Made by a program: the position numbers and the translations under genes. DNA of 58,430 bases, the filler included, from Circinaria calcarea (lineage: Eukaryota): assembly GCA_051942165.1 (NCBI GenBank). It is 8 parts of 8 records of this genome, joined end to end, with 100 filler letters (N's around TTAATTAATTAA, not from the genome) between each part and the next. Parts side by side here need not be neighbours in the genome. Positions count along the whole stretch, not along the records: positions 21,984 to 29,201 come from JAVECS010001383.1; 7 more parts are not named here. One strand, given 5' to 3'. This document shows, piece by piece, positions 14,664-34,398 of the stretch. Each line of letters opens with the position of its first letter. Positions within the stretch are counted from its first letter, which is position 1. The notes beneath the pieces are model-generated. The model ran no database searches, was not told the origin of the DNA, and saw nothing but the letters and a program-made list of their open reading frames with translations.

Positions 14664-15682
14664 GGGGGAGGGGGAGGATAGTTAGCTGGCCGTGCTTGCT
14701 AATTTTTCTGGTTTTTGGTTGGAAGAATCCGGGTGTTGAGTTCCCAAGTCCCGACCCAGTTCCCAAGACTCAGATCTCGTGGACATAGTTCTGGAGCGTA
14801 GGAAGAGGGTAGTTTGTTCTATGGGGAAAGAAATGGGGGAAAGGGGAAAGGGGTACTTATACCTGTTCCGTGGCGCTCGGGGAAAAGTAGGAAAGTGGGA
14901 TACTCAACCGCCCGCTGCTATCTACTCTGTCTCCTCCCCCTACCACGCCCCTATCACGAATAAAAAAACCCACAAAATCACAAAGGAACAAACCCCACGG
15001 TATAAGTAGCCCGCCTTACTGGTACGAATCCCCCAAAAAGCGCCCGATTCGATTCGCCAGAAACAGAAACAGAAACAGAACCGAGACAAAAAGCCCTAGA
15101 TCTAGATAGATAGAGTACAGTATCCTCGGGGTTTCGTGTTCGGGTTCGGGTTTAGGTTTCAACGATATTAAAATAAAAAACACCGCAAACTCAAGAATTT
15201 CTCGGTATTGATGAATCGGATCTTCTCGAAATACCGTGCACCAACCTAACGTAACCAACCCAACTGATAGATGGGATAGATAGATGGATCGATGCACTGA
15301 ACTTCGAAAGTTCAGAGTACTGTAGCCGGCCTAATTTCCCAGCTGGGGAAAATTGAAGAAGAAGAAGAGATGGAGAATTTGTAGCATTTTGGGTCTAGTA
15401 TCTAGTGGAATTTACACATACATGTTTTGCTCTATAGGCTTTCACTGATATGGTATCGTGGGTATCTCCCAAAAAAAAGGTCAAAATCAAATGCGCTCCA
15501 TTCACAATGCAAGGGCCAGAAAGAAAGCGGCCTCCTAGGCCACGGGCCCGGAAAAAAACCCCCCCCAGTCATATTCTGACAGCAACAGTCATCTTGTACC
15601 CCCTTCATCCATTCACCTAGATGCTCACTCCTTCCATCCCTTCCACCAGCCCTGAACCGTTTATCCCATTTACCAAGCCATT

Positions 15683-17636
15683 TCACTTTATCCTCCCCAA
15701 AACCTCTTCCAAACACCCTGCACTCGCTGCCACAAAACCCAAGTAAGGTTTGCTGGGTTGGAGAACACGGCTGAGGTACTCGGGGTGGAATTGAACGCCA
15801 ACGAACCAAGGGTGATCCTTGAGCTCGATGATCTCCATCCGCTCTCCTTTGTCGTCTTTACCAATGAAAGAGAGGCCATGGGAAGCGAGGCGGTCAATAT
15901 ATGCAGGATTGACCTCGTAGCGATGACGATGACGTTCGAGGATGATGAGCTCGTCCTCAGCGGAGGAAGGAAAAGAAGAAGTAGAAGAGGAAGGCGAGTC
16001 TCCATTGGATACTCCGTTCGTGCTTGGTGATGCGGGAAGCAGTGACTTTTTGGAGCCGTAGAGTGCGCGGAGTTTACTCCATTCGCTCCCAGACTGGAAA
16101 TGGGTAGGCCGAATTCCCAAGCGCATTGTGCCACCCAGAGTAGTACGGTCAATTTCCGGCATAAAAATTACCACCGGATCAGGGGTTCGCTCATCAAGCT
16201 CAATGGATGCAGCTTTAGGAAGGTTGCAGACATTCCGAGCGAACTCAATGACAGCTATCTGCATGCCAAGGCAGATGCCCAGATACGGAGTCTTGTTCTT
16301 GCGCGCCCAGTTGGCAGCTGCTATCATTCCTTCGGTGCCTCTATGACCGAATCCACCGGGCACAAGGATCCCCTGAGCCGTACAGATCACATGCCAAGCT
16401 TTGTGATATTCGGCGGGGGAGGATGTACTAGTGACAGACTCGAGGTGCGAAGCATCAACCCACACAAGATCCAATTTGCGAGAGCATGCCATTGCGGCGT
16501 GTTCGAGGGATTTGATAACAGACAGATAAGAGTCATGAAGGTTTGTGTATTTTCCCACAAGTGCAATGGTGACCTTTTTGTATAGGTGGTCTAATGGGGC
16601 CGTGAGCGCATTCCAAGCCTTCCAGGTCTGCGCACCCTTTACCACCAAGCGATCCGATATTGTAAGGAGATCTAGACGCAGGATCTTCTGCAACAAGGGG
16701 ATAAGACCTTGTGATTCGAGGAGGAGGGGAACATGATATGTGGATGCAACGTCGTGCACAGCTACGACCTGTTCTGGCTCAACTTGGCAGAACATGGCGA
16801 TCTTATCGGTCGTAGTCTTTTCGAGTGCTTCTGAACAGCGGCAGGCGATCTTCATAGGGTCAACACAGAGCATACGTTTTTAGCAACCTTGAATCTTACC
16901 AGGTCTGGGTTCAAACCCGAACTCCGCACGTCTCTGATTGCTGCCTGCGTAGGTTTGGTCTTTTGTTCCTCGTTTATAACAGGGATGAGAGAGACGTGAA
17001 TTTGAAGAAAGTTGTCTTTCCCAGCCCTCCTCCTCAATTGCCTCATGGCCTCAATAAAAGGGGCGCTTTCAATATCGCCAACGGTCCCTCCGAGCTCAAT
17101 GATGCATACATCTGGCTGCTCGTTCGTGTCATCCACTGGTATCCGTGCAACCCGCTCTATCCAATCCTGGGTTGCATCTGTAAGATGAGGGACCACCTGA
17201 ACGGTCCGACCGAGATAATCTCCTCTTCGTTCACGTTCAATCACATGCTGGTAAATCTTTCCAGTGGTGATGTTGTTTTCACGAGTCAAGGTGATGTTGA
17301 GGTAGCGTTCGTAATTGCCGAGGTCGAGGTCAACCTCTCCTCCATCGTCCAAAACAAAGACCTCCCCGTGCTCTGTTGGCGCCATCGTGCCGGCGTCTAC
17401 ATTCATGTACGGATCGATCTTAATGGAAGACACTTTCAACCCAATTGTCTTCAACAGTAGACCGGTCGAGGAGGCTATGTCAGCGTTAGCAATTTTCCGA
17501 GAAGTGCAATTGGAGCAACACATACCAATTATGCCCTTGCCGATTCCGCTGATCACGCCTAAGAATTGGTTATTTGGCGTCTTTCAAGACCTGAAAGCAG
17601 CAGAATCTAACCTCCTGATACTAGAACGTACTTCAT
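15683..17636 (-). CDS. URA7: CTP synthase; spliced
   Basis: [56 protein letters not shown], glutaminase [18 protein letters not shown] and QFHPE. Confidence 0.97.
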
Positions 17637-19411: not shown

Positions 19412-19746
19412 GGAGATACCAAAAAAAAGACAAACTAGGTTTTTGGTCGAAGAGCTCAGATTGAATGACACATTGGCTTCTGTGTATATATCAATTATAA
19501 CGAGCACTGAGAATTCATTTTTCGCTTGAACCAATACACTGTAGAATCTCGTTATCTAATCATCATTTAACGTCACATTCCAGTCCCGGTGATATCCGTT
19601 GAGTACAAAACAGTAGAACAAAAATATAAAGTCCTTTCGCTACTTCATATACATACGAGGAGTAGAGCTGGGAGATCAGATATTACAGAATGAACTAAAG
19701 TACAGACGCTACTGGTACATCCTTTGCGCTGCAGTTGACAGTGGCT

Positions 19747-21225
19747 ATGCCTCCACAGGGCATTCGCCAGATCCTCCACCTTCCTCGATTCTCAATTCCG
19801 TCAGCTCCCAGTCGTCCCCTTCAATCAAATCTGTGTCGTCCACAAGTCCGCCATCAATCTCGATTCCCGTTCCCCAGTGGTCCGCGCAAACAATACCAAT
19901 ACAACCGCTTCAGCCGCGCCCAAACCATCAAATACCTATGGCAGACCAGCCCCGGCTTCCGCTATGGCACAGGTGGAGCAGGTGTCGGGCTAGCTACCTT
20001 TGTCGGCTATAACATTGAGACCGTACCGATATCAGGCAGACGGCGGTTCAATTGGGTGTCTGGTTCGTATGAGCAGGAGATGGGGGAACAGCAATACCAG
20101 CAGATCATCAATGAATTCAGAGGACGCATACTACCGGAATGGCATCCGCATGTAAAGTTGGTACGGAGGGTGTTGGAGAGACTGATACCGGCCAGTGGGT
20201 TGGAGGGACAGGAGTGGGAAGTGAATGTTATTGATGACAAGGCACAACTGAATGCTTTTGTTATTCCTGGGTAGGTTCTGCCATTTTCCTTTTGAGTATC
20301 CAAGAGCAGTGTGGGATTTTGGAGTAAAGGTCAGGGATGTGGCAAGCCTCTTGCTAATGCTGTGGCTAGTGGAAAGGTCTTTGTATTTAGTGGTCTCCTC
20401 CCAATATGCAATGGCGAAGATGGGCTGGCTACTGTTCTCGGCCACGAAATCGCTCATAACGTGGTCCATCATGCGGCGGAGAATTACAGTCGACTGTCTT
20501 TGATACTACCCATTGCTTGGCTTGGGTCTTTTATCTTCGATGTCTCCGGACAACTTTCTTTTGCCTTGCTGGATTATGCATATAATAGGCCAGGTTCCAG
20601 GAAACAGGAGGTATACTTCACTTTTGACATACCATAGGAGTAATCTGCTGATATTTCCCCTCCAGTCCGAAGCAGATTATATCGGTCTGAGTATGTCCTC
20701 CTTTCATTCTCTCTTTATTAATGTGCTCTACTAATTTTTTATAGTGATGATGGCTCAAAGCTGTTATGACCCCGAAGCAGCTGTAGAACTGTATGCTTTT
20801 ACTTTCCCTTCCTAATGCCAAGATTCTCCTAACATCCTCAGCTGGAGGCGAATGGAACAGGCAGAACAAATCGCCATCCCGCAGTTCCTATCAACCCATC
20901 CCTCGGTAAGACCTTCTCCTCCAATATTCTTACTTCAGCTGATCCGATCTAGAGCCACAATCGGGTGGCCAAGATCCAAGAGTGGTACGCACAAGTCCCC
21001 AAGACATCTTAGAGGGCAAGGAAAGTCCCATCTAAAAATTATCCGCAGGTTACCGCAAGCCCAAGGGAAACGCATTGAAAGCGAGTGTGGGACGACTTTA
21101 CGATACAGTGAGCATCTCTCCCTTCCTCCCCTTGAATATCCTCGAGGCAGTAAAGCTCTAACACGACTCTTGCAGCTAATGAGTTCCGGAAAGCATTTGG
21201 ACGGGGCGAGGATGGGTTCTGGTAG
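19747..21225 (+). CDS. OMA1: Mitochondrial metalloendopeptidase OMA1 (M48); multi-exon
   Basis: Presequence-like N-terminus, ETVPISGRRRF, NAFVIPG-GKVFVFSG, HEIAH zinc motif, SRKQE-SEADYIGL and FLSTHP. Confidence 0.92.
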
Positions 21226-22959: not shown

Positions 22960-23395
22960 TCAAAGACGCGCCATCCCACTCACCATCCTTTTCTCCTTCC
23001 ACCTTCACCCTTCAACTTCGAATCCCCAGCGCGTAAAATCTGGAGAGACAAGCCTGACTTTGGCTACTGGATTCTACTTGCCAATCAATTGGTGCCGGCC
23101 GGTTTTCCTCAGGCATCCAATCCCACCTTCCCAATCTACCAAGACTTCCATCCGACAACACTGCACACAGCAACCATCACCGTCATCGTGCAGCGTCCAT
23201 CATCGCGCTGTCCCCCGTCCTTTGCCTCTACGATTGCTCCCGGCACTTGTGCATAGGCTCACCCCAGCAATTCACGCTTCGACACGCTGCTTCCACACGC
23301 TCGCCCGCCTGCAATAAGGGCAGCCTCAGTTAAATCGCGCGTGGAGAACGCGAATCCCTCTACGGTAATTGCTCCCCTTCCCTCTGCGCGCTTCC
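22960..23395. promoter_or_regulatory. Cluster of CGCG (MCB/SCB-like) elements upstream of the 23759 gene
   Basis: GACGCG (~22964), GCGCGTAAA (~23029), CGCGCGT (23336), AACGCGAA (23347) and TGCGCGC (23385). CCAAT boxes at 22862 and 23082. Confidence 0.4.
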
Positions 23396-23758: not shown

Positions 23759-25102
23759 ATGGCGACTCTTGGTATCTCGACGCCTGTACGACAACCATTC
23801 GCGTCTCTTGACGGAGCCAGACTCGAGGGATTGACGAGTCTGAAAAACCGCCAGAATGGTAAGTCCTGTCCGTTGAGTCCAGACATCTCCAATCATACAT
23901 TATGATCGTCTGGGTGGCGTTTCATACTAACGTCCCGCTCAGCTTTGCCAGTGGCAATGTCAACTCCTGTCAAGCGTCGTATGCCTACCGCATTCGATGA
24001 TGCCGACTCCGAGAACATTGATCCATCAGCCCTCCTATCTCACAAGAAGTTCAAAACAACAGATGGGAATCTAATCGTCAAGCCGGGCAAGACATCGCAG
24101 TTCGTGTTGACTAATGCGATTCTATCCTCTGCTCCTGCGTCGAGGCCAATCATCACCCCCAAACGCCTCGAGACGTCCCGCTCGACATTAACCACTAAAC
24201 CAAAGGTAGTACAGCCAGCTTCGGCTCCAGCAGCTGCTGGGAGATCCCAAAAGGCTAAGCGCATCGGCATCCTTTCTCGTCGACGTGTCTCGTCCTCACC
24301 CTTTACGCGAGTTGATCCCCCATCATTTGGTTCTTCCGCTCGTCTCCCGTTTTCCATCGATGCCGCCCTCTCTGGATCCGTGTCCACCTACAACCGAAAC
24401 TCTGTCCCGCAGGTCAAGACTTCGACCTCGAAGAAATCCCAGCATAGCTGGATGTTCGAGATTTATGAGGATACCCCCGAACAGGAATTCGATAATCTCA
24501 TCCAGCACTCCACTTGTACCCTTGATATCTCCGATGATGAAGGTCGTCCGAAGAATGATAGAGGCAAGGAGAATATCCCTCCGCTTGATTACGTCGTACC
24601 TGCAAATGCTCGCCAATCTGCCTCGAGGAACGACATGATGATTGACGAGCCTCGCACCCCACTTGGTGATCTTGAAGCCAGCCAATTCTATGCTGAAGGT
24701 TGTGATGAATCGTCCGCTTTTATCATTCCGGATGAGAAGCCTTGCGAAGATGCTCCTGTTGCCTCGGACGTCAACACCATCACGACCGAAATCGATACGA
24801 CCAAGGTTACCGTCCCTTGCCAGCCCCCCACCGATGTTAACGTGCTATCGGAAGACGGATGGAAAGATCTCATGGCACAATTCGAATGTTACAAGAAGTC
24901 CACCGCTGCTCTTGCACTCGGTGCTACTGCTAAAGCGGACCCAAATGAGGCCGAGATCGAGATCTGGGAAAGCGAGAGTGCCAAAGCCGAGGAAGAAACA
25001 TCATTGGGGTTCACTCCGGATGCTCTTCAAACAATCATGCCCGACACTTGCGCTGCTGGTGCCTCTGGCGATAATAACGCCACCGGATCTCTTTTGAGAT
25101 GA
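23759..25102 (+). CDS. Disordered protein with ABBA, KEN and D-box motifs (Acm1-like candidate); intron 23859-23942
   Basis: Exon 1 MATLGISTPVRQPFASLDGARLEGLTSLKNRQN ends at GTAAGT. Exon 2 contains RIGILSRRR, FSIDAAL, WMFEIYED, RGKENIPP and RTPLGDL. Confidence 0.85.
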
Positions 25103-29719: not shown

Positions 29720-31982
29720 ATGTGGCTTGATCGGTTCTCAACCCACTCCACCCCCAGTGGATCACCACCTCCACCTCAAAACAGGCCATTCTCTCCAGCC
29801 CCAAGGCGCCCAAACCATTTGGCTCCCCCGGGACCTGTGACGCGACCAAGCTTCACCCCTCGATCTTCGTCCCTGTCGTTAATATCCAAGGCAAACTCCT
29901 CATCAACTTCACTAGCTGGTACTGCAAGAATACCTAATGGCTCTACGTTGAAGCGAGAGATTAGCCCTCCGATTGACGCGGTTGACCCTCTCGATGTCCT
30001 CCAAACTATCATTGGATTGCAGATACCTAGGGATGATACTCCTGTTAACAACCATGAGGGGTCTAGTTCGGAAGAGAAGCCTGAGGCACTTGTCGAAGAG
30101 ATCGACTTCAATGGCCTCAGCTTACAAGTTTTCATGGAGAGCGAGGCTGGGTTGAAGGAGTTGGACAATTTGCCCTATCCGCGGATTGAGGAATGTGAGT
30201 ATGTATGCCTCACCATTGGCGGTGCGTGCATATTTCTAAGCCCGAGATATAACAGTCGAAAGAGAAAACGAGAAATTTGACGAGCTACATCGTTCAATTA
30301 CAGTAAGGAATGTGGTCTACTTCAACAGATTCAGCCATTGATCGTCGCATAGGCCTGTGATGATGTTCTTAAGTCTGTGGAGATATCCTTGACGAGTTTT
30401 CAGAAGGACTTAGGTCTCGTTTCCGCAGAGATCGAGACGCTTCAGTCTCGATCAGCGGCCATCAACACGAGGTTAGAGAATCGTAAGAGGGTCGAAAAGC
30501 TCCTGGGGCCTGTCGTGGAGGAGATATCCATCTCTCCAGCGGTGATAAGGACAATCTCCGAGGAACCTATTGATGAGAAGTGGCTGAAGGCCGTGTCTAA
30601 ATTGGAGCACAAGTCGGATGTCGTCAACGACAAGCTTAAAGGACCAACCACTATTAGGGCTGTAGCGGATATCAAACCACTTTTGGATGATCTGACAGAT
30701 AAGGTAAATTACTGGTTGCTTGTGACTATGATTGAATTGAGAGATGAAGGCTAAAAGTTTACCAGGCAATAGAAAGGATTAGAGACTTTCTTGTCTCCCA
30801 GGTTAAAGCACTACGGTCACCCAACATCAATGCCCAGATCATTCAACAGCAAACGTTATTAGAACACAAAGACTTGTACGGGTTTCTTACCAATAAGCAT
30901 CCAAAGCTGGCCGAAGAAATTGGACAGGCGTACATCAATACAATGCGATGGTACTACTTGAATCAATTTTCACGCTACCGGCAAGCTTTGAACAGAATGT
31001 CCCTTTACCATGTTGACAGGCATGACGCTCTTGGTGGTGATCAATCAAATCAGAAAAGTAGGCTCTACCTCACACTAGCTTTTTGGGATATATTTGATAT
31101 TTGATAGGTGCTAGAGCAACTGGATCGAGAGCAACGCAAGTATCTCATGATGCAATTAACATTGGTAGACGAATGGACATTCTTAAAACGTCAAACCAGT
31201 CTGCCATCTCAAGTTACCTTATAGAGGAGGACAAATCCGTACACTATGTCGAAACCCCTTTCCGAAACTTCAACCTTGCTTTGATCGATAATGTTTCATT
31301 CGAGTATTCATTCCTAACCGAGTTCTTCTCCACCATCACCTTCCACCAAATGTCCCGCAGGTTTGCTGAAATCTTCGAGCCGACATTTGCATTAGGTCAA
31401 TCACTAACCAAGGAGCTTATTGAAAACAACTACGATTGCCTTGGTATACTCCTCTGTGTACGATTAAACCAGCACTCAGCCTTTGAGTTACAGCGGCGGA
31501 AAGTGCCTGTGGCGGAGAATTATGTCAATGGTACAAATATCATACTATGGCCTAGGTTTCAGGTCGTCATGGATTTTCACTGTGAATCCGTTCGACAGCT
31601 TGCTGCCAACGTCTCCGGCCGGAACGCCGTATCTAAATTAACATTCACCGGCACCTCGTCTGATGCAACGAAGCAGTCTACGGCCCCCCACCACCTGACC
31701 CAGCGATTTGGCCAGTTCTTGTACGGTATCCTAGCAATCAGCTACGAAGCCGGCGATGACGAACCTGTATCTAGTAGCCTGGGAAGGGTGAGAAACGAAT
31801 ACGAGGCCTTCCTGCTCAAGGCGTCCAAGGGGGCAGGAAATGATGCGGCAAAGCGAGCGAGGTTCCTGGGGAACAATTACGCCCTAATCCTGACCATTAT
31901 CGCGGATGCCGAAGGGAGGCTTGCGCAGGAACAGAAGAAACATTTTGAGGATCTCAGGCAGGCGCTTGAAGATCAGCAGTAG
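29720..31982 (+). CDS. VPS52: GARP complex subunit Vps52; spliced
   Basis: LTSFQKDLGLVSAEIETLQSRS, RLENRK, RIRDFLVSQVKALRSPNINAQIIQQ, YINTMRWYY, LIDNVSFEY and LWPRFQ. Confidence 0.95.
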
Positions 31983-33333: not shown

Positions 33334-33464
33334 AAGCGATCAACCACCCCTTTGGATTTCGGTATATCATTCGTGAACTCCATTTGAAAAGGTTTTCTCT
33401 ACTTCCTTGACTGTTTATATCTTCCTTTACGTTGAGCACTATTCTATCCCTTCATAAAGTAACC

Positions 33465-34398
33465 ATGATCTCCCAAATCCCTATTCTCGTTTCTTCACTC
33501 CTCCCCCTCCTCTCCCTCCTCACCTCCGTCTCCGCCTCTTGCATCCACGGCACCCATCTCTTTCCCCGCCAATCAGAAACCGTCCCCATTTCCACCTTCG
33601 GCTACAGCGGCGCCATTGGCCCGCTCAACTGGGCCTGCCTCAACGAAACCGCCAACGGCCTCTGCTCCCTCGGGCAATTCCAATCTCCCATCAACATTGA
33701 CGCCTCCATCGAGCTGGACAACGGGGCGTCGAGCACGCTCAGCATCCCGAACGTGGAAGCGGCCGAGTTTCAGAATCTGGGCACAACGGTGGAGGTGGAG
33801 GTGAATGGGACGCTCGTGGATCGAGGCAAGGAATATGCGCTAGAGCAGTTTCATTTCCATACGCCGAGCGAGCATCGCATTTTTGAGGATTATCAGGTCA
33901 TGGAGGCGCATTTTGTTTTTGAGGCGGAGGGTGAGTCGTCCCCTGCAATTTTGGACATCTTCCTCCCTCGCACTCCCCGTTCCAACATCCTTCTCTAACC
34001 CGATGCTCCCTCCTTTACCAGACTCCACTATCCTCGTCCTCGCTTTCCTCATCCGCGTTTCCGCCCAGTCCGAACTCGACCCCCTCCTTCGCTCCGTCTT
34101 CGCCGCCCTGCCGGCCATCCGCAACCCGGGATCCGTCACCACCACGGGCCCGCTCTCCTTCGGCAACCTGCAGAATCACTTCGACACGCACTCTTTCTAC
34201 CGCTACCAGGGCTCGCTGACGACGCCGCCGTGCTCGGAGGGCGTCGAGTGGTTGGTCGTGGATGGGCCGTTGCTGGTGGATGTGCGGACGCTGGAGGAGG
34301 TGAAGAGCGTGGTCGCGTTTAACAGCCGCTATACGCAGACGCCGTTGGGGGAGAGGAATCGGTTGAACTGTTTTGGATCTCCTTCCTGTTCTATATGA
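33465..34398 (+). CDS. Secreted alpha-class carbonic anhydrase; intron ~33931-34022
   Basis: Signal peptide, GPLNW, QSPINI, zinc ligands QFHFHTPSEH and MEAHFV, and YRYQGSLTTPPCSEGVEW. Confidence 0.93.

Follow-up and report, generated by a model that had tools for sequence, protein, structure and literature searches.

A gene at positions 23,759–25,102 (plus strand) of a 58-kb joined stretch of Circinaria calcarea DNA, the whole of which is referred to here as the window, encodes a protein in which three short motifs follow one another: an ABBA motif (FEIYED), a KEN box and then a D-box (RTPLGDL). The product is predicted to be a cell-cycle protein, intrinsically disordered and probably located in the nucleus, from a Pezizomycotina-wide family, and its central 90-residue cassette consists of the ABBA motif and an adjoining helix, an acidic patch, the KEN box with two prolines, and an extended D-box. 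Judged by comparison with its relatives, this cassette is a real and deeply conserved feature, and it is very probably a docking element for a co-activator of the APC/C (anaphase-promoting complex/cyclosome). A further reading, which we hold tentatively, is that the protein mainly inhibits or modulates the APC/C in the manner of a pseudosubstrate and would be a functional analogue of Acm1 of budding yeast.

A preliminary description of the region, made from the DNA alone, had proposed an Acm1-type inhibitor on the strength of these motifs. Translation of the spliced gene places FEIYED, KEN and RTPLGDL at the coordinates and in the order given there (Table 1), and the spacings of 37 and 29 that it claimed are confirmed as the numbers of residues between the starts of ABBA and KEN and of KEN and the D-box, respectively. 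When the window protein was shuffled 200,000 times, an ordered ABBA-KEN-D-box trio within about 66 residues arose only 2 times, and the analytic expectation for the ordered trio is about 4e-6 per protein; a chance origin of the trio is excluded. Conservation weighs more heavily still than these figures.

From the family, 413 proteins were collected, and the 382 with a length of at least 320 amino acids (aa) were counted, the 31 shorter ones being left out. ABBA, KEN-P and D-box were found in this order in 376 of the 382 full-length members, with a distance of 35–48 residues between ABBA and KEN and an interquartile range of 31–36 residues between KEN and the D-box. In addition, 154 sequences were chosen for low 4-mer overlap, of which 150 were aligned and 4 were dropped for size. 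The only columns that proved invariant in these 150 diverse sequences were the K, E and N of the KEN box, the second of the prolines that follow, and the Arg of the D-box; prolines following KEN are described as typical in the Alfieri/Barford review. In the ABBA motif, conservation was 0.99 for F, 0.95 for I, 0.90 for E and 0.91 for D. The preliminary description had suggested checking whether the three motifs and its sites for cyclin-dependent kinase (CDK) are the conserved islands of the protein, which was borne out for ABBA, KEN and the D-box and not for the CDK sites, whose counts are given below.

Within the D-box core, the 150 aligned sequences have R in all cases, P at position 3 (P3) in 129, L at P4 in 149, G at P5 in 114, D or E at P6 in 124, and L or M at P7 in 146. 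Positions P1 to P7 (RxPLG[DE][LM]) are near-optimal and match the consensus substrate D-box, RLPLGDISN, in which Pro3 is given as optimal for co-activator binding (Eapen et al. 2025). The same paper describes Asn9 as one of three key D-box residues, located in the tail that contacts Apc10. Asn was found at P9 in 0 of the 150 family sequences. An extension with the consensus [DE][FY]YAEGCD takes the place of the canonical Asn9 tail, with D or E at P11 in 124 sequences, F or Y at P12 in 146, Y at P13 in 127, G at P16 in 139, C at P17 in 100 and D at P18 in 123. A "D-box extension" in Acm1 reportedly interferes with Apc10/Doc1, making the protein an inhibitor and not a substrate (Qin et al. 2019, cited by Eapen et al. 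2025). The absence of Asn9 and the presence of an extension appear to parallel Acm1, a likeness that favours the pseudosubstrate reading without proving it.

According to published accounts, Acm1 contains a D-box at the N-terminus that is specific for Cdc20, an ABBA (A) motif at residues 61–70 with an adjoining helix to residue 80, an NEN sequence (residues 90–92) that can fill a KEN receptor, a KEN box followed by S102-P103, and an inhibitory D-box (DB3) starting at R119, and there is room for all three motifs on a single Cdh1 propeller (He et al. 2013; Alfieri/Barford review). In the crystal, NEN fills the KEN site of a second Cdh1 (He et al. 2013), and Glu65 at P5 of ABBA contacts a Cdh1-specific Lys (Alfieri/Barford review). 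The ABBA-KEN-D-box order of the window protein and the predicted helix beside its ABBA motif match the Acm1-Cdh1 structure as presented in the paper on it (He et al. 2013; structure 4BH6), and the parallel in motif order drawn in the preliminary description is sound. The two proteins further share disorder, a Glu at P5 of ABBA, a second xEN motif, an extra N-terminal D-box-like motif and, it appears, an extended D-box instead of a canonical tail. The KEN box of Acm1, which the published passages only bracket between residues 92 and 102, we take to be at 98–100, and on this assumption the spacings in Acm1 are about 37 (ABBA-KEN) and 21 (KEN-D-box), compared with 37 and 29 in the window protein. 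The window protein (419 aa) is, however, twice as long as Acm1 (209 aa). Moreover, the family has conserved islands in an N-terminal half of 200 residues, and an IWES motif near its C-terminus, whereas Acm1 is not so described, and it occurs in the Pezizomycotina, where Acm1 has not been reported.

The preliminary description had taken the protein to be disordered outside the motifs, and this is what we found. Database comparisons were made with the exon-2 translation (385 aa) as the query, and orthologues served to assess the first 34 residues. At E≤10, no Pfam family matched the window protein except for a non-significant ribosomal match, and no domain was detected in 17 of 17 diverse family members; precomputed Pfam assignments were likewise absent for 120 listed relatives of the window protein and 120 of the Neurospora member. 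The AlphaFold2 model, based on the 150-sequence alignment, is mostly disordered, with a mean predicted local distance difference test score (pLDDT) of 55, a predicted template modelling score of 0.24 and short helices only. One helix begins two residues past ABBA (residues 178–191, exon-2 numbering; block pLDDT 88–89), and the second confident stretch is the D-box tail (block pLDDT 88–91). Membership of the region in a folded enzyme domain, named in the preliminary description as an outcome that would count against it, was rejected on the AlphaFold2 model, Pfam being empty as well. The UniRef name "Thymidylate kinase" is carried by many members, yet 17/17 have no Pfam or P-loop domain and the model is disordered; the label is a propagated mis-annotation. 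Members of 577, 549 and 662 aa exceed the usual length of 360–450 aa. Such overlong members may result from the joining of two adjacent genes in one gene model, perhaps the source of the "thymidylate kinase" label.

Relatives of the window protein at E≤0.001 numbered 749 and those of a Neurospora family member 1252, and 505 family clusters were counted among the 50%-identity representatives. All relatives with an organism on record are from the Pezizomycotina, namely Lecanoromycetes, Sordariomycetes, Leotiomycetes and Eurotiomycetes. The closest named relatives are from the lichen fungi Xylographa and Trapelia (about 50% identity), and the top match overall has 74% identity; this places the window in a lichen-forming Lecanoromycete. 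The member in N. crassa is NCU07771 (XP_958692.1), and the proteins are labelled either "hypothetical" or "thymidylate kinase". Searches limited to the main texts in an open-access library yielded no description of the family, NCU07771 included, and no inhibitor of this kind characterised in filamentous ascomycetes, in agreement with the preliminary description. A family that spans the Pezizomycotina (Aspergillus, Neurospora, Fusarium, Magnaporthe and lichen fungi) and is unnamed, and mislabelled in UniRef, would be a concrete candidate either for the missing brake on the cell cycle in these fungi or for a tightly timed target, with NCU07771 as its N. crassa representative.

APC/C-Cdh1 must stay off from G1/S to mitosis, and its inhibitors differ from lineage to lineage: animals have Emi1/Rca1, budding yeast has Acm1 and plants have OSD1/UVI4. 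We propose that the three degron pockets on a single co-activator WD40 propeller would all be occupied by the cassette at the same time. As the partner, Cdh1 would be somewhat likelier than Cdc20 because P5 of ABBA is Glu (0.90), as in Acm1. The inhibitor reading is preferred here because a near-optimal D-box core is joined to an extension that replaces the Apc10-engaging Asn9 and tail. The protein would then be an analogue of Acm1 that has arisen without detectable homology, and its N-terminal D-box-like and xEN motifs, basic patches and proline-directed sites may govern when the protein is present, where it is located and how it is finally destroyed. A more specific proposal, in which the protein is an independently arisen stoichiometric pseudosubstrate inhibitor of APC/C-Cdh1 in filamentous ascomycetes, in the role of Emi1/Acm1, with the D-box tail swapped for a blocking extension and with other modules that may couple it to a second target (separase or a phosphatase), is rather unlikely. 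If true, it would offer an example of a composite degron cassette re-invented, perhaps turned from degron to inhibitor via the D-box tail.

Several observations weigh against inhibition as the main role. Cyclin A and Clb5, which are substrates, have ABBA, KEN and D-box motifs as well, and a conserved cassette is therefore no proof of inhibition. The figure of 376/382 takes in close relatives and measures consistency, not independent events. The three full CDK sites (TPVR, TPVK and TPKR) and the basic KRR...KKFK sequence noted in the preliminary description are present, but the CDK sites are poorly conserved, with a full [ST]P.[KR] consensus aligned to the two exon-2 sites in 44/150 (TPVK) and 42/150 (TPKR) sequences. 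The best-conserved proline-directed site of the family, the CDK-type SP in GRSP (131/150), reads SQ in the window protein. Eight further islands, which include GRSP-K.KR-GILSRRR, FTRVDPP.F, PFSIDAALSGT, LDISDDE and the C-terminal IWES.SAK, match the cassette in conservation and point to a further function which the inhibitor reading leaves unexplained. Finally, no Acm1 chain was found when a profile of 17 family members was compared with all sequences of the PDB at E≤10, the one match, a ubiquitin variant (E 0.089), being spurious. "Acm1-type" in the preliminary description therefore applies to design only and has to be given up as a statement of membership: the family appears to be Acm1-like in its arrangement of motifs and not part of an Acm1 family. 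A comparison of the 125-aa cassette with proteins of 68–219 aa, made to find relatives as short as Acm1 or Mes1, gave 45 matches, all of them without a name, and none of the 16 examined, mostly the weakest, was labelled Acm1; these 16 are taken to be truncated family gene models because all begin inside the family sequence.

About as likely as inhibition is that the protein is an ordinary, tightly timed APC/C substrate and that the cassette is a strong composite degron. Through ABBA, recognition would then be early or resistant to the checkpoint, as it is for cyclin A and Clb5, and the real job of the protein would lie in the islands (GRSP-KR-GILSRRR, FTRVDPP, PFSIDAALSGT and the C-terminal IWES), through which it would bind a mitotic or S-phase partner. 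ABBA, KEN and D-box motifs are indeed found in substrates too (Alfieri/Barford review; Eapen et al. 2025), the core of the D-box agrees with the consensus for substrates, and the eight non-degron islands equal the cassette in conservation. A phospho-tuned degradation would also fit the [ST]P sites present within the D-box in 95/150 sequences and directly past ABBA in 77/150, where phosphorylation could tune docking. The lack of Asn9 in all 150 sequences, with a conserved extension instead, speaks for the inhibitor, as do the constant motif order and the narrow range of ABBA-KEN distances, which are more characteristic of proteins that bind stoichiometrically, like Acm1 or Mad3; neither point is decisive. 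Were the protein a substrate, the family would mark a strongly conserved mitotic or S-phase regulator, so far undescribed.

It is improbable that the family represents the Pezizomycotina securin or a securin-like separase regulator, in which KEN and the D-box would be degrons, with [IF]-x-[ILV]-W-E-S at the C-terminus acting as a separase pseudosubstrate. Securins (Pds1, Cut2, PTTG1; PF04856) are likewise disordered and have a KEN box, then an RxPLG-type D-box and then a Glu-containing acidic patch, so that the order in the family fits the securin plan in its published outline; EIEIWE of the window protein loosely resembles EIEKFFP of human securin, whose separase-binding tail contains PPWESN (PMC6858450 supplement). 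Chaetomiaceae members of the family end in LWESNS, which shares one tripeptide with the human PPWESN, probably by coincidence. In a protein-language-model atlas, the best named look-alike was an Ascomycota cluster, 55% of it with PF04856 Securin, at a score of 0.78, but the atlas rates this score with 5/10 family agreement as "lead only, probably wrong". At E≤10, PF04856 had no match in 17/17 members and none of the solved securins (yeast, human, worm) was matched by the family profile in the PDB. The candidate P4 Glu is variable, being Q in 40, D in 23 and another residue in 13 (76 of 205 motif instances), and only W-E-S is constant; none of eight members from the Sordariales, of which six belong to the Chaetomiaceae, has [DE][ILV]E..P. 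To our knowledge, an ABBA motif is not a described feature of securins. The degrons of the family are central and not N-terminal, and the IWES motif lies near the C-terminus (44/45 listed), whereas a long separase-interaction segment follows the pseudosubstrate of securins in the available accounts. A Pezizomycotina securin has, moreover, already been reported, for C. thermophilum and for C. globosum (XP_001225358.1), with KEN and D-box placed "in the N-terminal"; this misfits the family, comparing by description only, because the KEN box of the window protein lies at 58% of its length.

The cassette might also belong to a co-activator recruiter or scaffold like Bub1/BubR1, in which ABBA, KEN and the N-terminal xEN would hold one or two Cdc20/Cdh1 molecules at a given site or feed a checkpoint-like complex, a model to which we give little credence. 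It would account for the two KEN-type motifs, SENxDP (E, N and P 92–93% conserved) and the invariant KEN, of which the former recalls the Acm1 NEN bound to the second Cdh1 in the crystal (He et al. 2013), and the many extra islands could be localisation modules. The ABBA-KEN-ABBA arrangement of Mad3/BubR1 is likewise a conserved, fixed-order cassette of short co-activator-binding motifs (PMC5179498), but the motif order differs, and neither a Mad3_BUB1_I/TPR nor any other Pfam domain was detected in the window protein and 17 members at E≤10; the model is purely conjectural. Mes1 of S. pombe and OSD1/UVI4 of plants, meiotic or mitotic APC/C inhibitors described as pseudosubstrates with KEN (or GxEN) and D-box motifs about 20–30 residues apart, are set apart by description, no ABBA motif being included in the passages that deal with them (He et al. 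2013).

Table 1. Coordinates of the gene, its motifs and conserved islands in the window
Feature	Position	Strand	Remarks
MCB-like core pair CGCGT / ACGCG	23338–23352		10 bp apart, about 410–420 bp upstream of ATG
Exon 1	23759–23858	+	ATG at 23759; codons 1–33 and first base of codon 34; orthologues keep the N-terminus
TPVR, full CDK consensus	23780–23791	+	Residue 8; in some Lecanoromycetes, absent from Sordariomycetes
RQPFASL (R-x-P-F-x-x-L), N-terminal D-box-like	23789–23809	+	Followed by RL..L...KNRQN
Intron	23859–23942	+	84 nt, GTAAGT...CAG; with the exons joined, the frame continues and the KNRQNA junction conserved in orthologues is formed
Exon 2	23943–25102	+	Stop TGA at 25100–25102
TPVKRRM, CDK consensus overlapping basic KRR patch	23963–23983	+	TPVK residue 41, KRR 44–46
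SENIDP, xEN..P motif	24008–24025	+	E, N and P each 92–93% conserved (n=150)
KKFK basic patch, NLS-like	24044–24055	+	Residues 68–71; first Lys at least 90% conserved
TPKR, full CDK consensus	24155–24166	+	Residue 105; aligned full consensus 42/150, minimal [ST]P 83/150
GRSQKAKRIGILSRRR, conserved basic island	24239–24286	+	Family consensus GRSP.., CDK-type SP site; SQ in window protein
FTRVDPPSF conserved island	24302–24328	+	150-sequence alignment
PFSIDAALSGSV conserved island	24347–24382	+	Mean column identity 0.80
W-x-FEIYED (ABBA) and adjoining predicted alpha-helix	24449–24517	+	FEIYED = residues 205–210, 24455–24472
LDISDDE acidic island between ABBA and KEN	24521–24541	+	150-sequence alignment
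DRGKENIPP: KEN box, then two prolines	24557–24583	+	KEN = residues 242–244, 24566–24574
D-box RTPLGDL and conserved extension ..A.(Q)FYAEGCD	24653–24706	+	RTPLGDL = residues 271–277, 24653–24673
EIEIWESESAK, near C-terminus	24953–24985	+	[ILVF].[ILV]WE[ST] in 182/232
MCB, MluI cell-cycle box; NLS, nuclear localisation signal.

The spliced reading frame of the two-exon gene is 1260 nt and encodes 419 aa. The model of exon 1 and the intron is supported because orthologues carry a matching N-terminus, MAT..RQPF..L....RL..L...KNRQNA. Of 150 gene models, 53 have the pattern R.PF..[LIVM] within their N-terminal 70 aa, many of the models being without exon 1, and RQPFASL may be a degron like DB1 of Acm1. 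SENIDP is possibly a second ligand of the KEN receptor, comparable to the Acm1 NEN, and KKFK presumably mediates nuclear import. Upstream of the gene, the MCB-like pair may be a G1/S promoter element of the MBF type, a weak hint. The window contains 60 such cores and 7 close pairs, of which 5 are the palindrome ACGCGT counted twice, and the pair in Table 1 is one of only 2 non-palindromic ones.

At positions 24239–24250, where the window protein reads GRSQ, a CAA codon replaces the Pro codon, and the closest relative (74% identity) keeps SP; either a lineage-specific loss of the phosphosite or a base error would explain it. A stretch RRRVSSSP is R-x-x-S-x-P-like (cf. 14-3-3 sites), with [ST]P there in 72/150 sequences. 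The EIEIWES motif bears no more than a loose likeness to a separase site. Of the 45 Phe-type examples of the motif that were listed, 44 have it at a distance of 0–34 residues from the C-terminal end, the exception being the 549-aa model. Other known modules were considered and dropped for poor fit, namely a PP1-binding SILK/RVxF at GILSRRR and RVDPP, a B56-binding LxxIxE, a Mad2-interaction motif at KRIGILSRRR, and the FGF and C-terminal domain of Sororin.

Other genes in the window (CTP synthase, M48 peptidase fragment, Vps52 and carbonic anhydrase) gave no functional hint. The CTP synthase gene (15432–17583, minus strand) has at least one intron, because its CTP_synth_N and GATase domains sit in two open reading frame (ORF) pieces. 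The gene for Vps52, of the GARP complex, is at 30353–31982 (plus strand), and its coiled-coil domain and C-terminal domain fall in different ORF pieces; the M48 peptidase and carbonic anhydrase fragments are at 19699–20274 and 33411–33998, respectively.

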